Of a stretch of 64,000 nucleotides of DNA, positions 18,978 to 51,302 are shown in pieces; within the stretch, counting starts at the first letter, position 1; each line of letters starts with the position of its first letter. The position numbers and the translations under genes were made by a program. Under the pieces are notes generated by a model. It worked only from the letters and a program-made list of their open reading frames with translations. It searched no databases and had not been told where the DNA came from. Source of the DNA: a virus (Duplodnaviria > Heunggongvirae > Uroviricota > Caudoviricetes); IMG/VR virus record IMGVR_UViG_3300027974_000025. The stretch is one strand, 5' to 3'.

Positions 18978-19232
18978 TTAATCTTTAATACGTAAACCAA
19001 ACTGTAGGTCAAACCATTGAAAGTTTGCTTCAGCTCTTGCTTTGTTTATTTTAAATACCTTTTTCATCAATGGTATAGCATAAGCTTTGAACTGATCATG
19101 TTGTTCTTGTGTCATAGTCCATTTGCTATACCATTCTCTTGTCATATATGCTTCTTGTGTAGACTTACCAATCATTCCTAATTGATAGTCTACCAAGTGC
19201 TCACCAATATTCTCTCTATTTATCTTTGCCAT
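18978..19232 (-). CDS. hypothetical protein
   Basis: 84-aa ORF immediately downstream of the DNA polymerase gene. Confidence 0.35.
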   Translation of the reverse strand: MAKINRENIGEHLVDYQLGMIGKSTQEAYMTREWYSKWTMTQEQHDQFKAYAIPLMKKVFKINKARAEANFQWFDLQFGLRIKD

Positions 19233-21184
19233 TAGAACAAACTAATTTGATTAGGGTTAACAATGATTTTACGTTTCTTACCCTCTAGTTGTATCTTGTG
19301 TATTATGCGTTCAGCACGCTCAATATAATATGCATGATTGATATTATCTAATGGATGGTCTGGTTTTAGATTGTTGCATACATGCATCACCCAATCACCT
19401 GCTTCCACTTGTGATATATCAACAGCTGTGCTATCTGAATTGTGATTCTTCACCTTCAGTAGCTTCTCTCCTGTATTGGATACATAATATCTAATCAGCT
19501 TATTGTAGACTGTCTTTGTCTCTTTGCTATGACCTTCATAATGAAAGTCTTTACTAGCTTTTTGCCTGAGACAATAGTCATATATATTTGTATGATTGCG
19601 AATGGTGGTAGCCACAGGCACATCATTAACAAAAAACTGCTCCAATGCAATAGGTACAATCCTGGCAGACTTATTTTTGTGTAGTTCAAAGTCTGTAAGG
19701 AAGTCACCCTTCTTTTTGATTTCTCCATTAGTTTTAATTGCTAGATAGTCATTTACTGTAGAGAATATAATCTTAGCATAGTCTGTACGCTCTAGCTCAT
19801 AGCTAGTTAGATCCATCCACCACTTATTAATCTCATGCATCTTATCTATTAGTGATTTCTTAATCCTAATAGTTACACCATCTGTATTTGCAGATATAAC
19901 ATGTATATCAGCTAGTTCATATGCTTCGATGAGCATAAGAAGACTCAGTTCGCCTGTGATAGTGGTAAACATTGTTAGCTGTCTGTCATATATCCAGTTT
20001 TGCATGTCACTAGACTTACCATACACAGAGTTAACTGCAAGTTTAAGAGCACCAACAATACCTGCTATTTTCTTGTCTTTCTTGGCCATTGGTTTGAGTT
20101 CCAACCTTTTATCAAACATTGCTTTGTACCCAAGTAAGAATTCCTTACCCAAGTGACCAGGATATCTACCATTGTTAATGATAATAGCTGGATAATAGCT
20201 AGACACATCCCAATCAATAATTTCATAATCCTCATCAGACTCAAAAATCTTTGGTTTGTTCTCTGTATGAAGGCCACCCTTTGCAAACGTGTACGTATTT
20301 TCATAAAATTGTAATGATTCTTTGAATTCATCCTTCATTGTCAATACCTCTTTGCTAACCTTCTTTAAGAAATCTTTTAGCTTTGGTGTTTGGAATGTAA
20401 TGTAATCAGCTATACAATGTCTCACCTTCACTTCAGTTCTAAACTTACCTTTCTTTGGTAAATCAGAGTATTGTATGTTCTTCTCTTGACAATAGAACTT
20501 CTTAATCATCTCATCACCAATCTTGCTATCAGAATAGTTTAAGCATGGTATACCAAACTCTTCTTCAATGTCTTGTCTCAGCTCTATTTGATTGTTACCC
20601 TTGTACAATGGATGGTCTGTATCACCTGTTGTCACCTTGTAGAACTCATAGGTAGCCATAACATCATTCTTACAATAGTCTTTAGTTAGTTGAATATCAT
20701 CATCAGTCATGTTTGTTTTAGTATGGTGTACTGGCATCTCTTCAATGTTCTCCAGATCCATCTCAAACTCTAACCTTTTTAGTGAGACCATTCTATTCTT
20801 GTTGTCATAGTGATTGATTCTAAACAAATCAATCTGCTTTAGTGTAAGCCATTCTTCTCTGTACTCAGGGAATACATCATAGTTAGCATCATGTATGATA
20901 TCAGCAGCCTTTTGTGCTATCTTAGCAGCTATTTCAAAAGCAGCAAGCTCATGCCAATCATCATAGTTACGCAAGATCCACTCAATCACTTGAGAGTCAA
21001 AGCGTAAGTTATTATAACCAACCCAATAGTATTCAGGGTGTTGTTCAATAAACCTCATATACCCATCTAGTTGGTTCTTATCCTTACTCACTTCAAACTC
21101 TGTATAAGTTTTGCTCTCAGGATTATATATGCCAATGAGGAATAGTTCCTGCATTGTCTCAATATCATAGATGAGTATGTTCAT
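19232..21184 (-). CDS. family B DNA polymerase with a phi29-like motif architecture
   Basis: Exo I sits at the extreme N-terminus (LIYDIET). Exo II is YNNLRFDSQV and Exo III is YCKNDVMATYEF. Pol motif A is DVSSYYPAIII and motif B is KLAVNSVYGKSS (phi29 has KLMLNSLYGKF). The motif C region is ISANTDGV. 650 aa. Confidence 0.75.
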   Translation of the reverse strand: MNILIYDIETMQELFLIGIYNPESKTYTEFEVSKDKNQLDGYMRFIEQHPEYYWVGYNNLRFDSQVIEWILRNYDDWHELAAFEIAAKIAQKAADIIHDANYDVFPEYREEWLTLKQIDLFRINHYDNKNRMVSLKRLEFEMDLENIEEMPVHHTKTNMTDDDIQLTKDYCKNDVMATYEFYKVTTGDTDHPLYKGNNQIELRQDIEEEFGIPCLNYSDSKIGDEMIKKFYCQEKNIQYSDLPKKGKFRTEVKVRHCIADYITFQTPKLKDFLKKVSKEVLTMKDEFKESLQFYENTYTFAKGGLHTENKPKIFESDEDYEIIDWDVSSYYPAIIINNGRYPGHLGKEFLLGYKAMFDKRLELKPMAKKDKKIAGIVGALKLAVNSVYGKSSDMQNWIYDRQLTMFTTITGELSLLMLIEAYELADIHVISANTDGVTIRIKKSLIDKMHEINKWWMDLTSYELERTDYAKIIFSTVNDYLAIKTNGEIKKKGDFLTDFELHKNKSARIVPIALEQFFVNDVPVATTIRNHTNIYDYCLRQKASKDFHYEGHSKETKTVYNKLIRYYVSNTGEKLLKVKNHNSDSTAVDISQVEAGDWVMHVCNNLKPDHPLDNINHAYYIERAERIIHKIQLEGKKRKIIVNPNQISLF

Positions 21185-24936: not shown

Positions 24937-25185
24937 ATGGAAATGATTTTAACATTGGTTGGTTGTATTGTTGGTCTCTTGAGTGTAATTGTTTGTATAT
25001 GGGGATTCACCCATTTTGATGAATGGGAAATAGGGATAGAGTTTCTACCTAAAGACTACAACAACTTTGAACTAGGTGTCACTAATAGAAACTATGAGTT
25101 GACAGATGGAGGATTGGAACAAGAGCTTAGAATAGGTGTGTTGTTATTCACCTTTTTAATCATCTTCAGGAGATTTGATGCATAA
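24937..25185 (+). CDS. small membrane protein
   Basis: 82 aa with a TM-like N-terminus (ILTLVGCIVGLLSVIVCIWGF) and a TM-like C-terminus. Confidence 0.3.
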   Translation: MEMILTLVGCIVGLLSVIVCIWGFTHFDEWEIGIEFLPKDYNNFELGVTNRNYELTDGGLEQELRIGVLLFTFLIIFRRFDA

Positions 25186-25263
25186 TATAGCATTAAGTTT
25201 TACAATAACTAAATTAGTTATTTGTAGATCGTCCAGATATACATATCTTTGTATTAACTAATT

Positions 25264-26802: not shown

Positions 26803-27121
26803 GAAAACTACATACATAAATACAGAGCTTGAATGGGCTGAAGCACAACTTCTTTCCTGGAAAGCTTATGTAAACGCTAACCCACTGCATGAACTAAAGG
26901 ATAGAATTGAGTGGAAACCCACAGCTAAAGGAGGCATGTTACCTATGGTCATAGCATCTATTGAAGCACAGGGTAAGTTTGTACAAGAGACTATGAAGAA
27001 CTACCTAGCCCTAGTGGAAGTGGTAGATAAGTTAAGAAACATGGAAGAAGCTAAGGTGGAAGTGAGAGGAAAAGGTGAGTTATCAGGAGCAGCTGCTGAG
27101 TTCTTAGCAAATAGAAAATGA
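26789..27121 (+). CDS. hypothetical protein, a positional candidate for the terminase small subunit
   Basis: 110 aa. It lies directly upstream of the terminase large subunit and overlaps it by 4 nt. Confidence 0.3.
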   Translation: MATIKKTTYINTELEWAEAQLLSWKAYVNANPLHELKDRIEWKPTAKGGMLPMVIASIEAQGKFVQETMKNYLALVEVVDKLRNMEEAKVEVRGKGELSGAAAEFLANRK

Positions 27122-29160
27122 TAGAACTACAAAACATAGATTACAAAGACTGGTTTATAAATCAGAAACGTATTCCTGACAAAGACTCTCAGGAGTGTAA
27201 GCCATTCTTTGACTTTCACAGAGAGCTATGTTTGAATGGAGCTATGATGGGGGGTGTTTACATCAACCCATTTTTGTATTGGCACTTAAACATCTGGCAT
27301 ACAGAAGTTGACATAATAGATGAAAGAGGAAGGATTGCACAGAAATATGCCAATCCTTTTTTAAGAGATAATGAATGGCTTGTGACAAATGAAATTGACA
27401 GAGCTCAACAAGAAAAGAGGGGCTTAGTCATTCTAGGTATTAGACGTTTTGCCAAGTCAGTTTTAGAAGCATCCTATATTGCATGGGGTGCAACCTTTGA
27501 TGAAAACAGTCAGAATATCATAGCAGGCTTAAATGCCCCAGATATTAAACTGATTACTGATAAGATTGACAAAGGATTGAATTTCATTCCTGAGTATTGG
27601 AGATGGCAGAGAATTGAGGATAACTGGAAGAACCAAGTGACTCTAGGTATAAAGACCAAGTCTGGTGAACGTATCCCATTCTCTTCCATTCTAATACGTA
27701 ACCTTGATGAAGGTAACAATGAAGAGGCTATTGCAGGTACAAAACCACGTAAATTAATTATAGATGAGATTGGTAAAGGGAATTTTCTTAGAGGTTTACA
27801 GGCTGCTATTCCAGGTTTCACAACACCCTATGGCTGGGGATGTAGCCCAATTCTTACTGGTACAGGTGGTGATATGAAGAAATTCATGGATGCAAAGAGC
27901 TTAATGTTTGATGTAGACAATTTTAACTTCCTTACATATAATAACAGTAAAGATGACAAACGTATACATGGTCTTTTTATTTCTCATAAGTATAGAATGG
28001 AAGCCAAAGAAGATTCTACACTAGGAGCATATTTGAATGAGCCATCTAAATCAGACTTACACAATGTAAAAATGCTTGTAAGTAATGAAGAGAAGGCAAC
28101 GCAGATTACTAATGATAACTTAGAGAGACTTAAGAAGGCTGGAGATAGAATAGCTTATTTAAAAGAAAAGATGTACTATCCTCAAGAAGTGGATGATATC
28201 TTCTTGAATGAGGACACAAATATATTTGATATTGATGGTGCTAAGAGACAGAAGATCAGGTTGTTACAACAAGAAAGAACAGGAACTCCTATTGTATTGT
28301 TTCATGATGGAGAGAAGATAGCTCATGAGTTTACAGACAAAATGCCCATCTCTAACTTCCCTCTAAAGAACTCAGACCTGAAAGAAGCACCTGTTGTTAT
28401 ATATGAATTCCCTGTAGATAATCCTCCTTATGGATTGTATGTAGCAGGGGTCGATCCATATAGACAAGGTAAGTCTGCATATTCAAGTTCACTTGGATCT
28501 GTATACATATATAAAAGGATGCATGAAATTAGTGGTGAGAAGTATCAAGATATGTTCGTAGCTTCGTATTGTGCAAGACCTGATAAGAAAGAAACTTGGG
28601 AAGAACAAGCTAGATTTCTTATTAAGTATTACAATGCTAGAACATTGTGTGAGAATGATGATATATCTTTTATTGAATATATGAAAGCTAAAGGGGATGC
28701 TCACTATCTAGAGAGACAACCTGATTGGCTTAAAGAGATTGTTCCAAACACCACTGTAAAAAGAGATTATGGAATTCATCGTTCAAGTCAGAAGATAATT
28801 GACTATCTTCACACCTGTTTAAAGAAGTATATGGAAGCTCCTATATTTGTAGAGAAGAATGATGCTGGTGAGGTGATTAGAGAAGTGCTAGGTGTAAGTA
28901 AGATATTTGATCCTGTATTGCTTGAAGAGATTATTCAATACAATGATCAAGGTAACTTTGATAGAATCATTGCTGCAGAGTTAGCTATTGCCCAAGCAAT
29001 GAAGATGGACCCAATCATGGGTAAGATAGGTGGTACATCAGATGAGAGAGTAGCTTCTATGTTCAATAAGAAAAGAGGTAATATACTTTTCACTGAGTCT
29101 AGGAACAACATGTTTGGACAATCAAGAAATAAATATAAACGAAATAAATTGTTTTCATAA
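27118..29160 (+). CDS. terL: terminase large subunit
   Basis: Deviant Walker A VILGIRRFAKS, Walker B KLIIDEIG, and a coupling motif TGTGGD. The C-terminal RNase H-like nuclease begins at YVAGVDPYRQGKS. 680 aa. Confidence 0.7.
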   Translation: MIELQNIDYKDWFINQKRIPDKDSQECKPFFDFHRELCLNGAMMGGVYINPFLYWHLNIWHTEVDIIDERGRIAQKYANPFLRDNEWLVTNEIDRAQQEKRGLVILGIRRFAKSVLEASYIAWGATFDENSQNIIAGLNAPDIKLITDKIDKGLNFIPEYWRWQRIEDNWKNQVTLGIKTKSGERIPFSSILIRNLDEGNNEEAIAGTKPRKLIIDEIGKGNFLRGLQAAIPGFTTPYGWGCSPILTGTGGDMKKFMDAKSLMFDVDNFNFLTYNNSKDDKRIHGLFISHKYRMEAKEDSTLGAYLNEPSKSDLHNVKMLVSNEEKATQITNDNLERLKKAGDRIAYLKEKMYYPQEVDDIFLNEDTNIFDIDGAKRQKIRLLQQERTGTPIVLFHDGEKIAHEFTDKMPISNFPLKNSDLKEAPVVIYEFPVDNPPYGLYVAGVDPYRQGKSAYSSSLGSVYIYKRMHEISGEKYQDMFVASYCARPDKKETWEEQARFLIKYYNARTLCENDDISFIEYMKAKGDAHYLERQPDWLKEIVPNTTVKRDYGIHRSSQKIIDYLHTCLKKYMEAPIFVEKNDAGEVIREVLGVSKIFDPVLLEEIIQYNDQGNFDRIIAAELAIAQAMKMDPIMGKIGGTSDERVASMFNKKRGNILFTESRNNMFGQSRNKYKRNKLFS

Positions 29161-31742
29161 TGGCAATTATAAGATACACAAAAGACGCAACAATCAGGTA
29201 TGCCTATCTAAATATCTTCCCTGACCAGTTTAAGACTGAAAAGGAAAAGATGGATGAGAGTTGGATTAAAAATACCATGGATTACTTTGCTAACAAAGCA
29301 TACGCTGAATATGTAAAGAACAGAGATACATTTGTTAAAAACTATGACCTTGTAAAAGGTATATTAAGAAGAGAAGATTTCTACCAAGAACCAGAAGTAA
29401 GAAGCTTTACAGATGTGCTCACAGCAGATCTAGCTCTTCCTGCCTATGTAAAACATTATTCTATAATGACCACTCCTATTAATGAGTTAGTAGGAGAAAT
29501 CAGCAAAAGACCTGATGCATTTCGTGTCAAAGCATTTGATGATGACAGTAAAGCTGAAGAGCTTGAGTTTAAAACTCAACTATTACAAGACTATGTTGTT
29601 TCTCAAGCACAAAGAAAGATATTAGAGAAAGCAGCATTTGATGGTGTAGAAATTTCAGATGATGAGTTACAGGAGAAAACATTAGAACAAGTAAAAGATG
29701 AACTTGATAGCTACACCTCTGTAGCAGAGAAATGGGCAAATCATATACTAACTGCTGAGAAAGCTGAGTTTGTATTAAAGGAAAAATCTGAAGATGCCTT
29801 TAGAGATTTATTGATTTCTTCTAGAGAATTCTTCCACATCTATGAAGATAACTCAAAAACTGGGTTTAATGTTGAGGTGGCTAACCCTAAGAACACTTGG
29901 TTCTTAACCACTCCAGATAGAAAGTATATATCAGATACAACTGGTAGAAGTCAAGGGGCTTATGCTGCTGGTACTGTACAAGTTATGGAATTGTCTGAGA
30001 TCATTGAATCAATTCCAGATTTAACCAAAGAAGAGATTGACCACTTACGTAGTTCATTACAAGATTACGGATTGATCAATGTACGTGAATCTAATCTTGG
30101 TAATCCTAATGCTATTCCAGGTAATGACTCTATTCAATATGATACATTTGATCCATTAGTCTTACAGACTAGAATGATTATTGAGTCTGAAATGAAAGAG
30201 AATAATGATGGTCTTCAGGATTTCTTAGGACTTACATCTAATGTAAGCTCTTTTGGTTACAAATATGTTGTGGTAAGAGGTTATTGGATTTCTAAGAAGA
30301 AGATAGGTAAGGTGATATATACAGATGAGATGGGTAATGAACAATCTATGTTAGTAGATGAAGACTACAAATCTAAAACAATTCCTACAGAACTTTCATT
30401 AGAATGGGGATGGATTAACCAATGGTACCAAGGTACTAAGATTGGTCCAGACATCTATCATATCAAACCTTATAACTTATTACCTTACTGTCCAATCATT
30501 GGTCAAGTATTTGAGGTGAAGAATACAGAGGCTAAGAGCCTTGTAGATATGATGAAGCCTTTCCAAGTTTTATACAATGTGTGTATGAACCAGTTATATA
30601 AGTTACTTGAGAAGGAAGTGGGTAAGGTGCAGTTAATGTCTATCAGACACATTCCTATTCCTAAAGATGGAGATGCACAAGATGCTCTTGATATTTGGGA
30701 AATGGAAGCTCGTAACAGAGGTGTGGTATTTGTAGATGACAGCCCAGAGAATTTAAAGAGTCCAAGCTCATTTAATCAATACACCAGCTTAGACCTTACA
30801 CGTACGCAGGAGATCCAAGCAAGATATACTCTAGCACAACAACTTAAGAATGAGTGTTGGGAATTAATAGGTATGTCAAGACAAAGACTAGGATCTGTAC
30901 AAGCTAGTGAATCAGCTACAGGTACTAACGCAGCTATTACACAATCTTATGCTCAGACAGAACCTTTATTTGTAGCTCATGAATATATACTAGGTCAGTT
31001 ATATCAATCAATCATTGATGCAGCTTTATATGTTGAGAGCAAGAAGCCACAGTCTACTATATCTTATATTACATCTGAGGGAGAATCTGCATTTGTATCT
31101 GTGAATGGTACAGACTTACGCTTTAGAGACTTAAAAGTATTCTTGACTAACAGACCTGAAGATAGACAAATGTTTAATGAGATTAGAGGATTGTCTCAAG
31201 CTGTTATACAAAATGGTGGAAGCTTACATGATGTAATTGAACTATATAGCACCAATTCAATGAGACAAATGAAGCATGTGTTTAAGAAATTGAAGGATAG
31301 ACAAGAAGGTCTGCAGAATGCTCAGCTACAACAAAAACAACAAGAGATTGAACAAACACAACAAATTGCTCAAGCTCAAATTGAATCAGCTCAAGCACAA
31401 GCAGAAGAAAAACTAGCTAATGAAAACTACCAAGCTGAGCTTGATAGAATTAATAAGAAAGAGATTGCTCTTATTGCAGCTGAGTCTAAGAGTGGTCCTT
31501 TATCAGATTTAGATACTAGTGGCACTCCTGATGTTTTAGAGATTGATAAGTTAGCTTTGGCTCAGTCAAAGGCTGAAAGAGATTATCAAGCTAAGATGAT
31601 GGATGTACAAAGTAAAAATCAACTTGCTGCTCAGAAACTAGAGATAGAAAGAGAGAAGTTAAAAATAGCTAGAGAGAACCAGGCTAATGATTTAGCTGTT
31701 GCTAAAGAGAATGCTAAAGGCAGAGCTAAGAAAACCAAATAA
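29160..31742 (+). CDS. portal protein (putative)
   Basis: 860 aa, immediately after terL (ATAATGG overlap). It has a coiled-coil Gln/Ala-rich C-terminus. Confidence 0.5.
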   Translation: MAIIRYTKDATIRYAYLNIFPDQFKTEKEKMDESWIKNTMDYFANKAYAEYVKNRDTFVKNYDLVKGILRREDFYQEPEVRSFTDVLTADLALPAYVKHYSIMTTPINELVGEISKRPDAFRVKAFDDDSKAEELEFKTQLLQDYVVSQAQRKILEKAAFDGVEISDDELQEKTLEQVKDELDSYTSVAEKWANHILTAEKAEFVLKEKSEDAFRDLLISSREFFHIYEDNSKTGFNVEVANPKNTWFLTTPDRKYISDTTGRSQGAYAAGTVQVMELSEIIESIPDLTKEEIDHLRSSLQDYGLINVRESNLGNPNAIPGNDSIQYDTFDPLVLQTRMIIESEMKENNDGLQDFLGLTSNVSSFGYKYVVVRGYWISKKKIGKVIYTDEMGNEQSMLVDEDYKSKTIPTELSLEWGWINQWYQGTKIGPDIYHIKPYNLLPYCPIIGQVFEVKNTEAKSLVDMMKPFQVLYNVCMNQLYKLLEKEVGKVQLMSIRHIPIPKDGDAQDALDIWEMEARNRGVVFVDDSPENLKSPSSFNQYTSLDLTRTQEIQARYTLAQQLKNECWELIGMSRQRLGSVQASESATGTNAAITQSYAQTEPLFVAHEYILGQLYQSIIDAALYVESKKPQSTISYITSEGESAFVSVNGTDLRFRDLKVFLTNRPEDRQMFNEIRGLSQAVIQNGGSLHDVIELYSTNSMRQMKHVFKKLKDRQEGLQNAQLQQKQQEIEQTQQIAQAQIESAQAQAEEKLANENYQAELDRINKKEIALIAAESKSGPLSDLDTSGTPDVLEIDKLALAQSKAERDYQAKMMDVQSKNQLAAQKLEIEREKLKIARENQANDLAVAKENAKGRAKKTK

Positions 31743-31744
31743 TT

Positions 31745-32275
31745 ATGTTTGATAAACTAATTGATATATTGCTTGAATGGTGGAATTATGTTCTACCATT
31801 CATCATTATTAGAGACTATGAACAAGCTGTACTTCTCAGGTTTGGAAAGTTTAATAGAGTGTTGCTTCCAGGTATACACTTCAAGATTCCTTTCTTTGAT
31901 GAGGTGATTGATCAGCACGTTGTAGTTACAACACTTAGCTTAGATGCACAGTCTTTATACACATTGGATAAACAAAATATTGTTGTCAAGGGAGTTATAA
32001 AATACAAGATATCAGATGTGAAGATATTCCTACTTGAAGTGTTTGATGCACAGGACGCTCTTTCAGATATGGCTCAAAGCATTATTAAAAATGTAATTAT
32101 GTCAATGACCATGGAAGAATGTACAGATTCTGAATTAGACAACACACTTACAAAGAAGGTGAGAGTGGAAGCTAGGAAATGGGGAGTTGACGTTCAACAA
32201 GTAACACTGACAGACCTTGCCCCAATCAGAAGCTATAGGCTTATAAATGACAATTTTCTTAACAAATTAGATTAG
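31745..32275 (+). CDS. SPFH / band-7 (stomatin/prohibitin-like) domain protein
   Basis: IIIRDYEQAVLLRFGKFNRVLLPGIHFKIPFFDEVIDQHVVVTTLSLDAQ matches the SPFH core (erav.rfGk...pGlhf.iPf.d.v..vd.r). Confidence 0.55.
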   Translation: MFDKLIDILLEWWNYVLPFIIIRDYEQAVLLRFGKFNRVLLPGIHFKIPFFDEVIDQHVVVTTLSLDAQSLYTLDKQNIVVKGVIKYKISDVKIFLLEVFDAQDALSDMAQSIIKNVIMSMTMEECTDSELDNTLTKKVRVEARKWGVDVQQVTLTDLAPIRSYRLINDNFLNKLD

Positions 32276-32333
32276 AGTAAAAAATATTAATGCTATATTA
32301 TATTGAATAATAGTCAATATAAAGGCTCCTCTC

Positions 32334-32364
32334 TTTGCTGTTAACTTAACTTGATATACTTTTA
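32334..32364 (+). promoter_or_regulatory. Bacteroidetes-type promoter (TTTG -33 element, 19-nt spacer, TACTTTTA -7 element)
   Basis: TTTG at 32334-32337 and TACTTTTA at 32357-32364. It lies about 30 nt upstream of the scaffold start, which carries the AACTACATATG leader. Confidence 0.4.
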
Positions 32365-32394
32365 CACACGAAACCAATTAAAACTCAACTACAT

Positions 32395-33666
32395 ATGGCT
32401 GAAAATCTAGATATGCCCCAAATGGGTAACTTTAGTATTCAAGATACTATGGATATGGGAATGGGAAATCAAGAGTTATTAAATGACTTATTATCTCCTG
32501 AAAGTGCTACATCTAGTCCTGATGACATTCAGGACATTAAAGATGAACCTACTCCTGCTCCAACAAAGAAAACTACTTCTAAACAAACAGCTGCATCAAC
32601 TCCTGCTCCAGAAGATGATAAGAAAGATGAAGCTCCTGAAAAGGATATTCAAAGTTTCTTATATGGAGAAGAAGATGACACTGAAGATGAAGATGAAGAA
32701 GCACCAGCTGCACCAGCTAAAAAAGCTACGCAACCTGATGATAATCAAGAAGATAGTGATGAAGATGATGAAGATGGCGTTCCTAACCAGTTCGAAGCTT
32801 TATCAAAAGATCTTTTAAAACTAGGTGTCTTTTCACAAGACGAGGATGAAGAAGAAATAGCAATTAGTAGCCCTGAAGCTTTCTTGGAGAAGTTCCAAGC
32901 AGAGAAGAAAAAGGGAGCTATTGAAATAGTAAACAACTTCATTGGTCAGTTTGGAGAAGATTATCAAGAAGCGTTTGATGCCATATTTGTAAAAGGAGTT
33001 AGTCCAAAAGACTACTTTGGTGCATATAATCAAATCCAATCTTTCTCTGAGATGGATTTAAGTAACGAGAGTAATCAAGTTACTATTATCAAACAAGCAT
33101 TGACAGATCAAGGGTTTGATCCTGAAGATGTTACAACAGAGGTTGAAAGACTTAAAAACTATGGTGACTTAGAAACTGTTGCTGCTAAACACCATAAAGT
33201 CTTGATAAAAAAGGAAGCATCAAAGCTTCAACAATTAGAGCAAGATAAGCAAGCTCAATTACAACAGCAACAAGCCATCAAGCAACAATACTTACAGAAT
33301 GTAAACCAAGTTTTACAAGATAAGATTAAAGCTAAAGAATTTGATGGCATACCAATTAACCCTAAATTAGCTGGTGAACTACAAGATTTCCTAGTAACAG
33401 ACAAGTACAAGACAGCATCTGGAGAAACTCTTACAGATTTTGATCGTACTATACTGGAGCTGAAACGTCCTGAGAATCATGAGAAGAAGGTTAAACTTGC
33501 TCTATTGATGAAAATCATTGAGAAAGATCCTACACTATCTACCATTCAAAAGACAGGTATCACCAAAAAATCAAATGAGTTATTTGGTGAGGTTGCCAGA
33601 CAAGCCCAGAAGAGTTCAGTGAAATCGAAACAATCAGCTAGACCTACCTCTTCTTGGTTTCAATAA
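32395..33666 (+). CDS. scaffolding protein (putative)
   Basis: 423 aa. Acidic low-complexity N-terminal half (EDDTEDEDEE, DSDEDDEDG) and a coiled-coil C-terminal half. It is positioned between the portal/SPFH genes and the capsid gene. Confidence 0.5.
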   Translation: MAENLDMPQMGNFSIQDTMDMGMGNQELLNDLLSPESATSSPDDIQDIKDEPTPAPTKKTTSKQTAASTPAPEDDKKDEAPEKDIQSFLYGEEDDTEDEDEEAPAAPAKKATQPDDNQEDSDEDDEDGVPNQFEALSKDLLKLGVFSQDEDEEEIAISSPEAFLEKFQAEKKKGAIEIVNNFIGQFGEDYQEAFDAIFVKGVSPKDYFGAYNQIQSFSEMDLSNESNQVTIIKQALTDQGFDPEDVTTEVERLKNYGDLETVAAKHHKVLIKKEASKLQQLEQDKQAQLQQQQAIKQQYLQNVNQVLQDKIKAKEFDGIPINPKLAGELQDFLVTDKYKTASGETLTDFDRTILELKRPENHEKKVKLALLMKIIEKDPTLSTIQKTGITKKSNELFGEVARQAQKSSVKSKQSARPTSSWFQ

Positions 33667-33701: not shown

Positions 33702-35255
33702 ATGGCAATTCAAACAATTCCAGGTTTAACTGGTTTTACTTACGCTAGAGTCGCTTCAATGGATAAGCGTGCTGTAGGTAAGTTGACAGATTCAAACCAC
33801 CTAGAGAGTTTTCACTCTACAGAGCCAGCAGACTATGATAAGAAAATCATCAGTTTGTACACTCAGAGTTCTCTTTATAGTAATGATTTCTTAGACATGA
33901 TTAACAAGTCTACTCCTTACTATATTGATAACAACAGCGATGCTTGGAAATGGCAAGTACAAGTTCCTTACAAGTTCCCAAAAATCATTGACGTTCCTAC
34001 TACCACTTTGGAGTTATCCAAGCCTGGTATTGATGGTCAAGAGTTCCAATTGATTATCGACACTAATGAGTTCTCTAAGAACGCTATCATTTCTGTAGGT
34101 ACTCGTCAGTATGGTCCTCGTTTCTATGTAGTAAAAGATCCTGTTCCTTGGAATATGGGCTTCTTGTACACTTTCACTTTGGTGAGTGACAATCCTACAG
34201 TTGATTTCGTAAGTGGTACATTCTTACAAGTTGGTATCGAACTAGAATTAGTTGATGCTGCTATTGGTGAGTTTGATCAAGACTTATTAGGTCTTCCTCG
34301 TTTAGGTGAGCAAATCACAATGTTTGAATCTTTAGGTTCTGCATATGGTTATGAGCACAAAATTACAGAGTGGGCTGATGACAAGATGATGAGAGATGCT
34401 TCTGGAAAACCTTTAGATATCTTAGTATATGCTCCTCAAAGACGTAACCAATTACCTTTAACTCGTAATGATGTTAAGTGGGAACCATTTATTGAGTTCT
34501 GGATGCGTAAGTCTATGTTAGAATTAAAAGTTAAGCGTATGATCTGGGCTCGTCCTGGAACTGTGAAGACTAATGGTTCTAAGCAAGAATTAAAGCGTAC
34601 ATCTGCTGGTGTTTACCACAGAATGCGTAACAATGGTAACTTAGTTCAATACAATCGTGGTGAGTTCACTGCAAACTTGATTCGTTCAGTGTTTGGTGAC
34701 TTATTCTACAGACGTGTTGATGTTAAAGATAGAAGAGTTAAAATGTACACAAACGAAGCTGGTTTTGACGTGTTCCAACAAGCTTTGAAGAATGACGCTT
34801 TGAACTCTGGTTTAACTTTCATGGCTGATTCTGGTAACAGATACATGCAAGGAGAAGGACAACACATCACTTACAACTTTGCATTCGATGCAATGGTAAC
34901 TCGTGAGACTGGTCGTGTTGAATTAATCCACTTGAAAGAGTTAGATCTTCCTCAAACAAATTTAGAATTTGGACAGAACAAGAAGTCAACTCCAGTATTT
35001 ATGGTGTTTGATGTATCTCCAATGTCTGATGGTTCTATGATCAATAACATTCGTGAAGTACGTATGAAGGGTGCACCTTCTATGACTTGGGGTTATATCG
35101 ATGGTACTCGTCACCACTTAGGCTTTGCTAAGTCTCAAGGTATGAGTTCTGCAAACAAATTCCCTGGATATGAGATTTGGATGAAGGATCGTTGTGATGT
35201 ATTTATTGAAGATTTATCTAGAACTGTATTGATCGAAGAGATTCCTCAATTCTAA
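33702..35255 (+). CDS. major capsid protein (putative)
   Basis: 517 aa, directly after the scaffold. Its codon usage is shifted (Arg mostly CGT, Gly GGT, Ser TCT) relative to the rest of the genome, which suggests very high expression. A strong hairpin lies downstream. Confidence 0.5.
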   Translation: MAIQTIPGLTGFTYARVASMDKRAVGKLTDSNHLESFHSTEPADYDKKIISLYTQSSLYSNDFLDMINKSTPYYIDNNSDAWKWQVQVPYKFPKIIDVPTTTLELSKPGIDGQEFQLIIDTNEFSKNAIISVGTRQYGPRFYVVKDPVPWNMGFLYTFTLVSDNPTVDFVSGTFLQVGIELELVDAAIGEFDQDLLGLPRLGEQITMFESLGSAYGYEHKITEWADDKMMRDASGKPLDILVYAPQRRNQLPLTRNDVKWEPFIEFWMRKSMLELKVKRMIWARPGTVKTNGSKQELKRTSAGVYHRMRNNGNLVQYNRGEFTANLIRSVFGDLFYRRVDVKDRRVKMYTNEAGFDVFQQALKNDALNSGLTFMADSGNRYMQGEGQHITYNFAFDAMVTRETGRVELIHLKELDLPQTNLEFGQNKKSTPVFMVFDVSPMSDGSMINNIREVRMKGAPSMTWGYIDGTRHHLGFAKSQGMSSANKFPGYEIWMKDRCDVFIEDLSRTVLIEEIPQF

Positions 35256-40506: not shown

Positions 40507-43500
40507 ATGTCTTGTTTACCAGGAATGAACTGTGGAGGATATCAGTCAAATGATTGCTGTCCAGAAGTTAATTCAAATTGCGTAGATTATAGCGGACCCA
40601 ATTTACCTTGCTCAGGTGTACAAACACATGACTGCCTAACAACTGTTATTGAAAAGATAGATGACAAGTTATGTAGAGTGGGTAATGGTACGTCTGGTAC
40701 TTCTGGTTCTTCAGGTTCAACTTATGGAACAGCAGGAACTACAGGTACATCTGGTCGTGATGGTACAAGTGGTACTAGTGGAACTAGTGGCTCTACAGGT
40801 ACAACAGGAACAAGTGGTAGATCTGGTACCTCAGGAACTACAGGCACATCAGGTGGATCTGGTACTTCAGGAACTTCTGCAACAAGTGGATCTAGTGGTA
40901 GAAATGGATCAAGTGGTACGTCTGGTACAAATGGATCATCTGGTACTGCTGGAACTAGTGGAAGAGCTGGTACTACTGGTACAAGTGGTTCATCTGGTAC
41001 AACAGGAACAAGTGGATCAAGCGGTACAACTGGAACCTCTGGTACAACAGGTACAGACGGTTCTTCAGGAACATCAGGTTCTAGTGCTTCTTCAGGCACA
41101 TCAGGAACAACTGGTACAGATGGTTCATCTGGTACAACAGGTTCTTCTGGTATTTCAGGTGACAGATATTTTACTACATCTGCAGATTCACATACATTAG
41201 GTACTGCAGGAACTCTCACTGTAGGAACAAACTTAGCCTACACTCCTGGTCAATCAATTATTATTGCTCATAGTGCCACTGAATATCAAGTGAGCACATT
41301 ACTAACATATAATGCTGGTACAGGTGCCATGTCTTTTAGTGCACCTTCTACAACAGTAGGTTCTGGTACATTTACTGCGTGGAATGTAAATTTACAGGGA
41401 GCTGCAGGTGGTGATGGATCTAGTGGTACATCTGGCTCTGCTGGTACATCAGCATCTTCAGGAACAAGTGGTTCTACAGGTACAAGTGGAACTAGTGGTT
41501 CTACTGGTACTAGTGGTACATCTGGTACTTCTGGATCTAGTGGAACAACAGGAACCTCAGGAACAAATGGAACATCTGGTTCTACAGGAACTTCTGGCAC
41601 AAGTGGGACATCTGGTTCTTCAGGCACAACTGGTACAAGTGGAACATCTGGCACTTCTGGCTCAACTGGTACAACTGGTACATCTGGTACAGCAGGAACA
41701 TCTGGAACTAGTGGTTCTACAGGAACAACTGGTACAAGTGGTACTAATGGTACTTCAGGAACATCAGGCTCAACTGGAACCACTGGTACAAGTGGTACAT
41801 CAGGGTCAACTGGTACAACTGGAACAAGTGGTACTAATGGAACAAGTGGTACTAGTGGTTCTAGTGGTTCTAGTGGAACATCTGGCACATCTGGAACAAG
41901 TGGTAGTACAGGAACTACAGGTACCTCAGGTACAACTGGTACAAGTGGAACTAGCGGTTCTACAGGTACAAGTGGTACTTCAGGTACAAGTGGTTCTACA
42001 GGTACAAGTGGTTCTACAGGAACATCAGGAACAAGTGGTACAACTGGAACTAGTGGTACAAATGGTACTAGTGGAAGTAGTGGTACAGCAGGTACAAATG
42101 GTACTAGTGGATCAACAGGAACTTCTGGAACATCTGGTTCTACAGGAACTTCTGCTAGTTCAGGACAATCTGGTACATCAGGTAGTTCTGGTACATCTGG
42201 TACAGCAGGTACATCAGGATCTGTAGGTACATCAGGTACAACTGGAACTAGTGGAACCTCAGGTACAAGTGGTTCAACAGGATCTTCAGGCACATCAGCT
42301 TCTTCAGGTACATCAGCTTCTAGTGGTTCTAGTGGATCTTCTGGAACTAGTGGGACATCAGGTACTAGTGGTACAACTGGTTCAAGTGGAACAACAGGTA
42401 CTTCTGGTACATCAGGTACAAGTGGTTCAACAGGTACCTCAGGTACAACTGGTACAAGTGGTACATCTGGAATAAATGGTACTGCTGGAACTTCTGGTAC
42501 TAATGGATCTAGTGGTACATCAGGTATCTCTGGTAATATATATGCAACAACATCTTCTACTAACCTAACAATAGGTACAGGTACTAAAAACCTTACTGTT
42601 GCAACAGGTTTATCTTATACGGTTGGACAAAGTGCTATTATAGCAAATAGTGTAGGTAATGACATGACTGGCCCTGTTATTTCATATAACAGCGGAACAG
42701 GTGCCCTATCTGTAAATGTATTAACTACTAATGGTAGTGGTACATATTCTACATGGAGTGTTAACTTGGCTGGTGCCTCTGGTGGTACTGGTTCTTCTGG
42801 AACTTCTGGATCTTCTGGTTCTACAGGAACTAGTGGTACTTCTGGATCAACAGGAACCTCTGGTACAAGTGGAACTAGTGGTACATCAGGGTCAACTGGT
42901 ACAACTGGAACTAGTGGTACTTCAGGTACTAGTGGTACATCAGGATCAACTGGAACATCAGGAACTTCTGGTACTAGTGGTTCTACTGGTACATCTGGAC
43001 TTACTGGAACTGCAGGTACAAGTGCTTCAGCAGGAACTAGTGGATCAAATGGATCTTCTGGTTCTTCTGGTACAACTGGAACCTCAGGGACAAGTGCTTC
43101 TTCTGGATCAAGTGGTACAGCAGGAACTTCTGCTTCTTCTGGTACTTCTGGATCTAGTGGTTCATCTGGTTCATCTGGAACAACTGGTACTACAGGAACT
43201 AGTGGAATTAATGGAACAAGAGGAACAAGTGGAACTACAGGTACCTCAGGTACAACTGGTACAAGTGGTTCAACAGGAACAACAGGTACCAGTGGAACTA
43301 GTGGTATAAATGGAACTAATGGTATTAATGGAACAAGTGGAACCTCTGGTACAAATGGTACTAGTGGTACAGCTGGTACTAATGGAAGTAGTGGAACAAA
43401 TGGTACTAGTGGAATAAATGGAACAAGTGGTACAACTGGAACTAGTGGTACAACAGGTACCAGTGGAACAAGTGGATCTAGTGGTACAGTTGGTACAAGT

Positions 43501-48772: not shown

Positions 48773-48804
48773 TTTGAAAATGTCAGAAATAGTTCTTACC
48801 TTTA
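48773..48804 (+). promoter_or_regulatory. Bacteroidetes-type promoter (TTTG, 20-nt spacer, TACCTTTA)
   Basis: TTTG at 48773-48776 and TACCTTTA at 48797-48804. It lies upstream of the 48833 start, which carries the AACTACATATG leader. Confidence 0.4.
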
Positions 48805-48832
48805 CAATAATTTTAACCAAAATAAACTACAT

Positions 48833-50083
48833 ATGCCTGAAAATCAATCCTTGCTACAACAGCTAGAAGAGATGGTACATTGGAAAAAGAGTAAAAAGTT
48901 CTATGCTGATAAGCTTGGAATTACAGAGTTTGAGGTGGATGAGCTATTAAAAGAATTAAGAAATCAAGAACAAAGTGAAGAAGATGCTGAGATAGGAAAC
49001 TATGTTGCTGAGTTAGAAAACGCAGTGATTAAGTTTACAGAAGATTTAGCTAAGGGTACAGGAGAGGTTGTAGCTAATTTTAGTGAAGAGGTTAAGAGTC
49101 TTGATGAGCTCATTGAGAAATGTAAGATAGATACAGAGAAGTGGGAGATAACCAAATATGTCCAAAACTTCTGGGGGAATGGAGGAAATCCTCATTGGCA
49201 AGTCAAAGCATGGTTAGGGAAGAAGTCTACAGAGCAAGTTTTTCAAGATGTGTTTGTAGACTTTTTAACTTCATATAAGCCTGTGTCTCAAGAAGTTATG
49301 AGTCCTAAGGTTGACTTTAACAAACCAAATGGTATGTTAGTTATCAACAAACAAGACTCTCATTTAAACAAATGGGATATAGATGGTAACAATAATGTGG
49401 CAGACAGACTAGCTAACATTATGTACAAGGTGGAACTAATAGCTAATCAAGCTCAATTGTCCAACAACTTAGAGAACATAACTTACATAATAGGATCTGA
49501 TGAGTTTAACAGTGAGTATACCAATGCCACTACAAAAGGAACTCCTCAGCAGAACACACATACATATCATACATCTTTTGAATACATCTGTGGACATGAG
49601 GTGTTAATGATTACAATGTTATTACAATATGCTCAGAACGTTAATGTAATATACGTGGCAGGTAATCATGATGAGTTTGTAGGATGGCATATGGTTAACT
49701 GGTTACAAACCTACTTCAGGAATGTAGAAAGATTAACCTTTGATTGTTCTCCTAAGTATAGAAAGTATGTAAGTTATGGTGATTCAGCATTGATGTTTAA
49801 CCATGGAGATGCTATCAAACCAGTTAAGCTTGCAGGTTTATTCCCAATAGAGTTTAGAGAACATTGGTCTAGTCATAGCAAGTTCTACATTTTTACAGGA
49901 GACAAACACCATGAGGTGAGTCAAGATTTTAATGGTATAAAGTTTTATCAAATTCCAGCATTTTCAAATGCTAAAAGTCTTTGGGACGACAAGATGGGTC
50001 ACACAATGTCCAAGGCAGAAGTAACAGGATTTTTAATAGATGACTGTGATGGAATGACAAATATATTCAAACAGTATTTATAA
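48833..50083 (+). CDS. metallophosphoesterase (calcineurin-like) domain protein
   Basis: 416 aa. The C-terminal half carries the MPE motifs IIGSDEF (GD), VAGNHDE (GNHD/E), FNHGD and FTGDKHHE. The N-terminal half is helical and acidic. Confidence 0.55.
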   Translation: MPENQSLLQQLEEMVHWKKSKKFYADKLGITEFEVDELLKELRNQEQSEEDAEIGNYVAELENAVIKFTEDLAKGTGEVVANFSEEVKSLDELIEKCKIDTEKWEITKYVQNFWGNGGNPHWQVKAWLGKKSTEQVFQDVFVDFLTSYKPVSQEVMSPKVDFNKPNGMLVINKQDSHLNKWDIDGNNNVADRLANIMYKVELIANQAQLSNNLENITYIIGSDEFNSEYTNATTKGTPQQNTHTYHTSFEYICGHEVLMITMLLQYAQNVNVIYVAGNHDEFVGWHMVNWLQTYFRNVERLTFDCSPKYRKYVSYGDSALMFNHGDAIKPVKLAGLFPIEFREHWSSHSKFYIFTGDKHHEVSQDFNGIKFYQIPAFSNAKSLWDDKMGHTMSKAEVTGFLIDDCDGMTNIFKQYL

Positions 50084-50820
50084 TGGCAACATTAAGACAA
50101 ATGGTTTCAGATGTACGTTCAGTACATAAATTGCTCACTACAGATAATCTAATTACTGATAGAGTAGTTGCGTCTGAAATCAAGAACAACACACTTTTAC
50201 TAATCAAGCGTGAGACTAATCTCAGAAAGCTTTGGGCTACTGACACTGTATTTCAAACACTTCCTTGTTTGGAAATGATAGAGGTGCCCATCTCTGATTG
50301 TTGTGAATATGTGGAACCATGTCAAGTTGCAAGAAGCAGATATAAACTTCCTCGCATCAGTGAGGGAAACTATCAATACTTAATCCAAGGTGTTTATTCT
50401 ATAAACGCTATGGGAGGTAATGGTAAAAGATTCAAAGAGATTACAATCAATAGATACTTAAATCTATTAAAACTACCTATCATCAAAGCTGAACAATACT
50501 ATTGGATAGCAAATGGTGGGTATCTATATATCAACAATCCTAATTTACAATCAGTTAGAATATCTGCCTTCTTTGAAGAAGATGTTCCAAATAAGATTTT
50601 ATATCCTGAGGATTGTGCTTGTGGAAACATTCCTCAAGTTAGTGATGAAGATTATTGCATAAATCCATTAGACAAGGAATATGGATGCCCTGGTTACTTA
50701 ATAACACAAGTGTTACAACTTACTTCTCAAAAACTATTATCGACATACTTTAGCATTAAAACAGACCAAACATTTGATGGCATTGATGGACAAGCTCCCA
50801 ATGCAAAACCAACTAGCTAA
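50083..50820 (+). CDS. virion/tail structural protein (hypothetical, Cys-containing)
   Basis: 245-aa ORF packed with the ATAATGG overlap. Confidence 0.4.
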   Translation: MATLRQMVSDVRSVHKLLTTDNLITDRVVASEIKNNTLLLIKRETNLRKLWATDTVFQTLPCLEMIEVPISDCCEYVEPCQVARSRYKLPRISEGNYQYLIQGVYSINAMGGNGKRFKEITINRYLNLLKLPIIKAEQYYWIANGGYLYINNPNLQSVRISAFFEEDVPNKILYPEDCACGNIPQVSDEDYCINPLDKEYGCPGYLITQVLQLTSQKLLSTYFSIKTDQTFDGIDGQAPNAKPTS

Positions 50821-51296
50821 TGCGTACCAAGATAGACTGGAGAAGTTCTAGTAAAGAAAACTACAGTAACTTTTGTAAGAAACATCCCACCATAAAAATT
50901 ACATTTGATGAGTGGCGAAACATTATATATTTATATAATGACAATTTTAAAAACTACATTCTAGAAACAGGAGAGAAAGCAAGACTTCCTTTTGGCTTTG
51001 GTGAGTTCTCTATCAATAAAAAGAAGAGAAGAAAAACAAAGACAGTTGATGGAAAGGAGATGGTCAATCTACCAGTTGATTGGCAGAGAACAAAACAAAA
51101 AGGCAAAATCATCTACAACTTCAATTATCACACAGAAGGTTACTTCTTTGGATGGATGTGGTTTAAAGAGTCCACTAGGATTCGTAATATAAATCTTTGG
51201 TATTTCAAACCTTCTCGTACCACTTCTAGATTGCTGTCACATTACATAAAAACAGATGATAAATACCAACACATTTATTGTGAATGGAAAAAATAA
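50820..51296 (+). CDS. hypothetical protein
   Basis: 158-aa basic ORF. Confidence 0.4.
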   Translation: MRTKIDWRSSSKENYSNFCKKHPTIKITFDEWRNIIYLYNDNFKNYILETGEKARLPFGFGEFSINKKKRRKTKTVDGKEMVNLPVDWQRTKQKGKIIYNFNYHTEGYFFGWMWFKESTRIRNINLWYFKPSRTTSRLLSHYIKTDDKYQHIYCEWKK

Positions 51297-51302
51297 AAGA
51301 AC

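Follow-up and report, generated by a model that had tools for sequence, protein, structure and literature searches.

The window analysed here, a 64,000-nucleotide stretch of tailed-phage DNA (IMG/VR record IMGVR_UViG_3300027974_000025), encodes directly after its portal gene a 176-residue protein that consists of an SPFH (Band_7) core, an N-terminal helix and a short tail. The gene is coupled to the portal gene and belongs to a family that is widely spread among phages, yet it is optional: phages with near-identical capsids fill the same slot with other genes or leave it empty. Our preferred reading, to which we give a probability of roughly 40%, is that the product is a low-copy, late-expressed accessory protein that sits at the periphery of the host membrane and acts on it, where the membrane binding, the cytoplasmic location and the host target are what we infer.

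A minimal SPFH protein outside the cage-forming families

The open reading frame (ORF) list of the window gives an ATG-initiated frame of 176 residues on the plus strand, within which three parts can be told apart:

31745..32275 (+), including the stop codon: mini-SPFH gene, 176 residues, 20.5 kDa, isoelectric point 5.1 (Band_7 match, AlphaFold2 (AF2) model, Foldseek, substitution-rate ratio).
31748..31792 (+): conserved amphipathic alpha-helix, residues 2-16, predicted to be an in-plane membrane or docking helix (predicted local distance difference test (pLDDT) ~94 in the AF2 model; periodicity).
31799..32224 (+): SPFH1+SPFH2 alpha/beta core, residues 19-160 (Pfam match to residues 21-160; strands from E19-22 through E148-160).
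32225..32272 (+): C-terminal tail, residues 161-176, with a conserved S-x-R-L motif and no coiled coil (AF2 model, alignments).

The initial annotation had called the protein SPFH/band-7 from a core peptide, RDYEQAVLLRFGKFNRVLLPGIHFKIPFFDEV, which is indeed present, and the assignment is borne out by Pfam Band_7 (PF01145), which matches residues 21-160 over profile positions 2-147 at 95.1 bits (E=6.8e-27), far above its gathering cut-off of 23.6. An AF2 model built on a 107-sequence alignment (29-85% identity) reached a pLDDT of 95.3 and a predicted TM-score of 0.83, and consists of a helix at residues 2-16, an alpha/beta core at 19-160 and a 16-residue tail without regular structure; an earlier model made from 48 close homologs had a pLDDT of 43.5 and was discarded. 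The tail is modelled at pLDDT 67-79, and its residues S163 and R165 are conserved throughout the family. Human stomatin (9oh9) was matched by Foldseek with E=1.5e-14, a probability of 1.00 and a TMq of 0.77 over 164 aligned columns, and the other structural relatives are HflK/C, QmcA, prohibitin, erlin and flotillin, with TMq values of 0.68-0.76 for HflK/C, QmcA and prohibitin. Searched against solved structures, the family profile likewise found stomatin (E=4.5e-13), together with QmcA and HflK/HflC.

Stomatin and QmcA (TMq 0.76) are thus the best matches by profile and by fold: they have the SPFH1+SPFH2 core in common with the phage protein, whose N-terminal helix lies where their membrane segment sits. 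The phage protein differs from them in its sequence (~21% identity) and in having no hydrophobic hairpin or transmembrane (TM) segment, no coiled-coil wall and no C-terminal cap. The full-length relatives with solved structures are at least 240 residues long as against 176 here; among the top 50 Foldseek matches, the solved entries shorter than 240 residues are truncated SPFH-domain constructs or a local refinement. QmcA pairs with the NfeD protein YbbJ, whereas a scan of the neighbouring genes (large terminase, portal, 423-residue protein and major capsid protein) gave no NfeD-family match and no hflX-hflK-hflC operon. Because the protein ends 16 residues past its last core strand, without a coiled-coil wall or cap, it is a member of the SPFH superfamily that stands outside the cage-forming families.

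This architecture bears on the ring scaffolds of the HflK/C-FtsH type to which the initial annotation had likened the protein, an analogy that does not hold, as the coiled coil and the C-terminal parts that build the cage are missing and the HflK and HflC cut-offs are not reached. HflK and HflC, which form the FtsH-modulating cage of E. coli, share the SPFH core at 23-25% identity (TMq 0.68-0.73) but are TM-anchored, periplasmic proteins of ~330-420 residues from an hfq-hflX-hflK-hflC operon, such as that of contig L192, and none of these traits is found in the phage protein. The idea that the gene encodes a canonical HflK/C-like cage that encloses FtsH and tunes the lysis-lysogeny decision could draw on the top-ranking NCBIfam models, which are hflK and hflC, on the automatic HflC/HflK annotation of the gene by JGI, and on the location of some family members in temperate-phage early arms near integrases. 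Both models, however, score far under their equivalog cut-offs (TIGR01933 hflK, 76.5 vs 159.4 bits; TIGR01932 hflC, 54.6 vs 134.4 bits), so that HflK/HflC orthology was rejected; no integrase occurs among the annotated genes of the window, which are only part of its ORFs; the expression is late; and with no TM segment, export signal, coiled coil or cap, no cage is possible. We regard this explanation as effectively refuted by the architecture.

Lambda CIII offers a looser comparison and a possible lead as to mechanism. It is an early protein of 54 residues that targets the membrane protease FtsH and needs its amphipathic helix to do so, and it resembles the protein studied here in being a small phage product with an amphipathic helix; some members of the SPFH family even lie in an equivalent early or recombination arm. 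The two are unrelated in sequence and fold, and CIII is early whereas the SPFH gene of the window is late.

An amphipathic helix in place of a membrane anchor

The N-terminus had been described in the initial annotation as a hydrophobic, possibly TM, segment. The quoted string carried one isoleucine too many (the sequence reads MFDKLIDILLEWWNYVLPFIIIRDY...), and the segment does not have the character of a TM helix. We used as a heuristic the Kyte-Doolittle (KD) mean over 19 residues with a threshold of ~1.6 for a TM call. The highest window in the protein is 1.35, and only 18% of the family members (n=107) reach 1.6. Over the same 107 members, the helical periodicity of residues 1-17 peaks at 100 degrees, at 1.61 compared with less than 0.6 outside 90-110 degrees, and charged residues are found at positions 3, 4, 7 and 14 in 62-75% of them. 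The first 18 residues hold a median of four charges, 80 of the 107 aligned members have Pro18, and the family motif reads M-[FL]-D-x-L-[IVL]-D-[FL]-[LI]...W...P18. On these grounds, hydropathy together with a family-wide amphipathic periodicity with conserved charges, a TM segment was rejected.

Profile alignments put residues 14-22 opposite the last part of the stomatin membrane hairpin, so that the helix abuts the position of the membrane segment of stomatin and HflK; no signal-peptide-like features were found at the N-terminus. The pattern of the sequence suggests that the helix docks on a membrane or on a partner and does not span the bilayer. At the nucleotide level, codons 10-20 also contain a hairpin with a 13-bp stem (31774-31802, -16.3 kcal/mol), which is kept only in the closest genomes (at least 90% identical) and not throughout the clade and is probably incidental.

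The slot after the portal is a variable cassette site

The gene lies in the head-gene block, just after the portal, as the initial annotation had placed it, and the surrounding genes are as follows:

27118..29160 (+): large terminase (TerL), first gene of the coupled TerL-portal-SPFH group (phrog_6681, 8.8e-84).
29160..31742 (+): portal (P22_portal, 3.9e-13; phrog_6547, 9.5e-101).
32395..33666 (+): acidic, Q-rich coiled-coil protein of 423 residues, putative scaffold by position and composition only.
33702..35255 (+): major capsid protein (MCP), crAss type (Pfam Crass_capsid, 6e-28; phrog_11589, 1.1e-32).

The window belongs to a crAss-like phage, since it combines a Crass_capsid MCP with crAss tail ring 2, ring 1 and muzzle genes, which lie downstream of the head block at 50083-57111. 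Its portal is only 25-30% identical to Crassvirales portals, with Leptolyngbya phage Lbo-JY46 as the best match, and megablast of the head module against GenBank phages gave no DNA-level match. Of the description "between portal and scaffold", the portal half is secure, while the scaffold half is a label from position and composition. The sole matches of the 423-residue protein among Pfam and PHROG profiles are phrog_16294, of unknown function, and a sub-threshold FlgN; its gene is directly upstream of the MCP gene, and Lbo-JY46 and crassvirus cr10_1 likewise have a protein of ~400 residues before MCP.

In all 80 IMG/VR loci that were found through the SPFH gene, the order TerL-portal-SPFH-423-residue protein-MCP is constant. 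It is the same in a sister clade (SPFH 72% identical, 111.7-kb contig) and in a divergent lineage, L263, with an MCP of 87% and an SPFH of 43% identity. The ratio of non-synonymous to synonymous substitution rates (dN/dS) is ~0.075 for the SPFH gene, close to the values for TerL (0.080) and portal (0.094) and beside 0.047 for MCP; the gene is thus under purifying selection and functional where it is present.

Because these loci had come through the SPFH gene itself, we resampled the clade through MCP, taking the best 80 of at least 599 matching IMG/VR stretches (96-99% MCP identity), of which 65 had enough upstream sequence. The states of the slot in these 65 loci can be summarised as follows:

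(i) The standard SPFH gene follows the portal in 53 loci.

(ii) A divergent short SPFH gene, encoding 175-176 residues that are 32-34% identical to the standard protein (Pfam Band_7, 7.6e-15), takes its place in five. This allele begins with a different N-terminal helix, MLDGNIIINSLEWL..., and by portal sequence its carriers group together as one sublineage, with MCPs that are still 96-97% identical. Examples are:

L332:4035-4562: divergent SPFH allele.
L337:3927-4454: divergent SPFH allele.
L361:4070-4600: divergent SPFH allele.

(iii) Two unrelated small ORFs occupy the slot in another five (L334, L350, L352, L366 and L376), and these loci are mosaic relative to the portal phylogeny. The cassette (L334:4090-4558) encodes a very acidic protein of 78-83 residues and then, overlapping it, one of 84-89 residues with an HEHFH (HExxH-type) motif; neither ORF has a Pfam, PHROG or PDB-sequence match. 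From the motif, the second ORF is a candidate tiny metallopeptidase-like substitute for the SPFH gene.

(iv) The slot is empty in one locus (L378), with an intact junction: ~20 nt after the portal stop comes TAGAGTAAAAAAT..ATAATGCTATATTA, the junction that in standard genomes starts with the SPFH stop codon.

(v) An N-terminally truncated SPFH remnant (residues 79-176) is left in one locus (L362:3657-3950). The last 1.5 kb of its portal gene are 100% identical to those of an intact-gene genome, L370, and the remnant reflects a very recent deletion or else an artefact of assembly.

Twelve of the 65 loci, with near-identical MCPs (96-99%), thus do without the standard gene. Further afield, Lbo-JY46, the closest cultured relative, has its portal followed by a 407-residue protein and then MCP, with no SPFH gene there, and the gut crassvirus cr10_1 has none in the homologous position. 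The post-portal position is a variable cassette slot in which the SPFH gene is optional: near-identical genomes differ at this fixed site in both presence and allele, and among close relatives the gene is not inherited with the capsid module as a head protein would be. The initial annotation had proposed an assembly chaperone or a capsid-associated scaffold. Since phages with near-identical capsids manage without the SPFH protein, the evidence argues strongly against an essential role of that kind, and the promoter-like element that sets the gene apart from the scaffold/MCP unit (see below) speaks against it as well.

Turnover of this kind would also be expected of a conflict cassette, that is, a membrane-level superinfection-exclusion or anti-defence factor whose slot changes reflect an arms race. 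Presence, absence and allelic replacement at a fixed hotspot among near-identical phages fit this explanation, as do the mosaic two-ORF state and a 63% identical SPFH protein in a phage (L252) whose TerL is only 39% identical; in the Vi01-like phage PhiSH19, moreover, an SPFH ORF among non-structural genes adjoins a superinfection exclusion gene (PMC3220722). Set against this are the dN/dS of 0.075, with no sign of diversifying selection among the standard-gene loci, the late, portal-coupled expression, which would be unusual given that exclusion genes are mostly early or prophage-expressed, and the fact that SPFH domains have no known experimental tie to exclusion. The PADLOC models gave no family at E<=0.01 for the protein, and a defence-system component was rejected as a candidate on that result. 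We consider a conflict role improbable.

The slot has a counterpart in crAss001, in which gp21, a lineage-variable trimeric head fibre of ~97 residues, is encoded right after the portal gp20 and binds a hexon pocket through residues 1-38 (PMC10172136). The likeness is an analogy of position only, as gp21 is a capsid-bound fibre for which no SPFH relationship is reported (PMC10172136). By this analogy, the SPFH protein might be a virion component that is anchored through its conserved N-terminal helix, be it a capsid decoration, a head-fibre-like protein or an internal protein, and mass spectrometry has detected SPFH proteins in preparations of some jumbo and Vi01-like phages (PMC7760394, PMC6034870, PMC10892097). 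Those cases, however, concern long SPFH forms with low peptide counts in crude preparations; no SPFH protein is reported in the virion atlas of crAss001 (PMC10172136); the gene stands outside the high-expression scaffold/MCP unit; and the family also occurs in temperate early or recombination regions and in phages with unrelated capsids. A place in the virion is therefore very unlikely.

Coupling to the portal and separation from the capsid unit

The start of the portal gene overlaps TerL by 1 nt, and the portal stop codon ends 2 nt before the SPFH ATG in the window. Over 78 loci, the gap from portal stop to SPFH start is -1 nt in 20, +2 in 56, +3 in one and +6 in one, which suggests translational coupling of SPFH to portal. 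Downstream of the gene the picture is different, and three features separate it from the capsid genes:

32276..32394 (+): conserved intergenic region of 119 nt between SPFH and the scaffold/MCP unit (alignment of 20 diverged loci).
32287..32300 (+): 14-mer TTAATGCTATATTA, possibly regulatory, invariant in 20 loci.
32334..32365 (+): TTTG-N19-TAnnTTT(A) promoter-like element upstream of the 423-residue and MCP genes (conserved CTCTTTG ... TATACTTTTACA).

The intergenic region persists in the empty-slot genome L378, where the 14-mer is also kept (4635-4650), as it is across L001-L080. A second exact copy of TTAATGCTATATTA lies at 25183-25196 (-), where the minus- and plus-strand gene blocks diverge, and at up to two mismatches there are seven matches compared with 2.25 expected; the 14-mer may be a phage regulatory site. 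The element at 32334-32365 is strongly conserved across loci and may be a Bacteroidota sigma-A promoter, as it resembles the published Bacteroides consensus (-33 TTTG, -7 TAnnTTTG). The pattern TTTG-N17-21-TAnnTTTAC has three matches where 0.69 are expected, a borderline excess; one further such element is found at 48773-48805, upstream of the ORF at 48833. Scans for sigma-70-type promoters and intrinsic terminators were at chance level, and Bacteroidota-type promoters lie outside that scan.

As the SPFH gene is coupled to portal and separated from scaffold and MCP by a conserved promoter-like element, its product is probably made alongside TerL and portal, which are low-copy, and apart from the high-copy scaffold and MCP. 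Membership of a low-copy unit fits a regulatory or accessory role better than that of a capsid building block.

A large family of short SPFH proteins on unrelated phage backbones

An exhaustive search of 1.84 billion cluster representatives returned 917 proteins at E<=1e-10, and nearly all of the best 150 of these are 168-190 residues long and align end to end at 30-50% identity; a profile search of a larger database found 2,097 clusters at E<=1e-10. The median length of the family is 176 residues (107 members). The best viral structural match, UniProt A0A6J7WFI0 from an "uncultured Caudovirales", has 173 residues and TM-scores of 0.89/0.91 at 28% identity, whereas the remaining viral SPFH structures listed in BFVD are mostly of 258-800 residues. 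Cellular matches are ordinary long SPFH proteins, the canonical hfq-hflX-hflK-hflC operon of L192, phage-like regions or a contig of the clade. Together, these sequences make up a large, uncharacterised family of short SPFH proteins whose sampled genomic contexts all appear phage-derived.

Cultured phages scarcely figure in this family. Among 50,697 GenBank phage records, only the uncultured podovirus MW202733 carries a short SPFH gene; tblastn of the window protein against these phages gave partial matches of at most 35% identity, family member P0168 gave none and P0204 gave MW202733 only. When the distant members P0204, P0338 and P0128 were scanned against IMG/VR, no match was returned, and a scan with a diverse family alignment returned only the clade of the window; as regards sequence patterns, the diverse alignments have no stretch conserved enough to be searched with. 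The short proteins from uncultured phages (A0A6J7WFI0, MW202733) share architecture, length and end-to-end alignment with that of the window, across more than 100 representatives, and differ in genome position (after TerL in MW202733) and in having automatic annotations only. The long SPFH proteins of cultured phages, found in Vi01-like phages (the "SPFH band 7 lipoprotein" of phrog_200, which is the only PHROG match of the window protein), in RaK2-like and jumbo Erwinia phages and in the T4-like phages 44RR, Aeh1 and RB43, have the SPFH domain in common with it but are mostly 258-800 residues long, at most 35% identical over partial alignments and, in the Vi01-like phages, annotated as lipoproteins. 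SPFH ORFs have been listed in T4-like, Vi01-like, RaK2-like, jumbo and further phages from 2006 onwards, with function unassigned (PMC10892097, PMC7760394, PMC6034870, PMC1524935, PMC3220722). A Crassvirales preprint that names an SPFH domain does so as a BACPHLIP domain hit only, without location or experiment.

We compared the surroundings of the gene on ~14 distinct backbones, a small and hand-picked sample of the contexts of the family. Besides the post-portal slot, two other positions are found in crAss-like phages: between the muzzle gene and a gene that takes the ring 1 position (L238, L240), and upstream of gp110-TerL-portal (L239, L252). The SPFH protein of L252 is the 63% identical one mentioned above, and its contrast with the 39% identity of TerL suggests exchange or relocation of the gene. 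Elsewhere, the gene lies between a T7-type small terminase (TerS) gene and TerL (L085), just after TerL with the annotation "prohibitin-like protein" (MW202733), just before an unrelated TerL-portal pair (L254) or before a Mu-F-type head gene (L096). It also adjoins a trypsin-like protease and an M15 endolysin (L083), follows an endolysin and a metallophosphoesterase (L095), sits in early or recombination arms that also carry integrases and YqaJ or Erf/RecE-like exonucleases (L087, L182), stands beside a GTP cyclohydrolase or a polynucleotide kinase-like ATPase (L099, L100), or lies among small ORFs near a GroEL gene (L262). The same family is thus carried at different positions on unrelated backbones, which span the three crAss-like positions, T7-like and other podoviruses and temperate early arms.

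In several non-crAss members endolysins lie near the SPFH gene, and the short SPFH genes of L087, L095 and L262 have metallophosphoesterase genes as neighbours. Holin- or spanin-like small proteins of 66-90 residues, with a TM-like segment and a coiled coil, are encoded one to three genes away from it in non-crAss phages; in two of the five (L092, L095) the TM-like segment was judged by eye and lies below the KD threshold of 1.6:

L083:7773-7994: small ORF with TM-like segment and coiled coil.
L085:1334-1576: small ORF with TM-like segment and coiled coil.
L254:1382-1654: small ORF with TM-like segment and coiled coil.
L092:6773-6973: small ORF with TM-like segment and coiled coil.
L095:4219-4455: small ORF with TM-like segment and coiled coil.

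In ~6-7 of the ~14 backbones the SPFH gene is at most two genes away from packaging or head genes, an adjacency that looks enriched. The chief alternative to our preferred reading builds on it and holds that the protein is a packaging- or assembly-linked membrane platform, a non-essential enhancer that would tether portal-nucleated procapsid initiation or terminase packaging to inner-membrane microdomains. In the clade of the window, all 78 loci have the SPFH start at -1 to +6 nt relative to the portal stop, the gene belongs to the low-copy unit of TerL and portal and stands apart from that of scaffold and MCP, and the divergent-allele loci keep an SPFH protein in the slot despite 33% identity; on other backbones (L239, L252, L085, MW202733, L254 and L096) the family has TerS, TerL, portal or Mu-F at most two genes away. 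T4 provides a loose analogy, as its portal initiation is membrane-associated, gp20 acting with gp40. The same alternative has to contend with slots that are empty or hold unrelated ORFs at 96-97% MCP identity, with the absence of the gene from Lbo-JY46 and cr10_1, with family members in the tail block, by endolysins or in early/recombination arms, and with an N-terminal helix that is conserved even where portals and terminases are unrelated. Lysis cassettes and morons, moreover, are commonly sited upstream of terminase genes as well, so that the adjacency may be one of position and not of function. On balance, we think such a platform unlikely, though less so than the conflict or virion roles considered above.

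A tentative model for action on the host membrane

Our preferred reading, a low-copy, late accessory protein at the periphery of the host membrane, would comprise the following steps:

(i) The protein is a minimal SPFH unit, an amphipathic helix joined to an SPFH1/2 core, with no TM anchor, signal peptide or cage-forming coiled coil.

(ii) It would be produced late, in translational coupling with TerL and portal, and probably in low copy.

(iii) As it has no export signal, it would stay in the cytoplasm, and its amphipathic helix, together with the SPFH1 face nearest the membrane, may let it dock peripherally on the inner membrane.

(iv) Without a coiled coil, this cap-less SPFH unit would be unable to build a cage of its own. 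Most likely, it would intercalate into or compete with cytoplasm-facing host SPFH-protease assemblies of the FtsH, NfeD or QmcA type; alternatively, it might organise patches of membrane locally.

(v) The outcome would be altered membrane-protein quality control or membrane stability before packaging and lysis.

The same helix and core occur in phages with unrelated capsids, portals and lifestyles, which points to a partner common to many hosts, either the membrane itself or a conserved complex. The initial annotation had also suggested that host membrane proteases might be modulated; such an effect, on these proteases or on host SPFH complexes, would fit the evidence. Several points weigh against the reading. 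Its membrane binding, its localisation and its host partner are all deduced, and the N-terminal helix could instead pack on the core or bind a protein. As the SPFH domains of HflK/C are periplasmic and the phage protein carries no export signal, its possible targets are confined to host complexes that face the cytoplasm. The recurrent adjacency to TerL and portal (~6-7 of 14 backbones) could mean a link to packaging or assembly, the PADLOC scan had no match to offer, and our literature search found no tested function for any phage SPFH protein.

A more speculative variant, which we rate as doubtful and below the platform and conflict explanations, would make the protein a portable membrane-docking module that sites late events (portal-nucleated procapsid initiation, terminase packaging and holin-controlled lysis) at inner-membrane microdomains of its own making. 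This variant would explain why TerL, portal and holin- or endolysin-type genes are recurrent neighbours of the gene, and why allelic replacement still leaves an SPFH protein in the post-portal slot. If true, it would amount to a phage-encoded "raft organiser" made from a cage-less SPFH domain.

Other features of the window

Outside the SPFH locus, the window holds an ORF for 1,993 residues (40507-46488) with massive triple-helix repeats, ten stretches of which match Pfam Collagen (9.9e-135), and a weak C-terminal match to the chaperone-like Peptidase_S74; it coincides with the only GC-rich stretch of the window (0.43 vs ~0.35) and probably encodes a tail fibre. An SbcD/Mre11-like phosphoesterase gene (48833-50083; phrog_704, 6.2e-45) lies in the tail block just upstream of ring protein 2. 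The ring 1 (51303-52277) and muzzle (52204-57111) ORFs, as called, overlap by 74 nt, and the true muzzle start is probably further downstream. The minus-strand block contains an rIIA-like gene (7702-10053 (-); phrog_612, 4.2e-56) together with DNA polymerase (19232-21184) and ribonucleotide reductase (954-2810) genes, and no tRNA genes were found in the window.

Hints as to the host conflict. A 59-kb contig of the clade (L181, JBBAJX010000014.1) was binned with a metagenome-assembled genome of Sediminibacterium (Bacteroidota), which is a weak hint, while portal and TerL both point to the cyanophage Lbo-JY46 (L081, PP438436.1) as the closest cultured relative.

Concluding remarks

SPFH proteins are usually seen as large membrane cages with a coiled-coil wall, whereas the family of ~175 residues described here keeps the base module and an amphipathic helix. 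The family is widespread in uncultured phages, with the 2,097 clusters noted above, and nearly absent from cultured ones. In an abundant crAss-like clade with genomes of ~104-118 kb, the polymorphic slot comes close to a natural knock-out series, with the gene present, swapped, replaced or missing, and these natural variants would make its function testable once a host is available. What we describe is not a new kind of system; it is a well-defined accessory gene. If host SPFH-protease complexes are indeed its target, the protein would represent a new route by which phages control membrane proteostasis; if it instead organises assembly at the membrane, it would change the view of podovirus-like morphogenesis.

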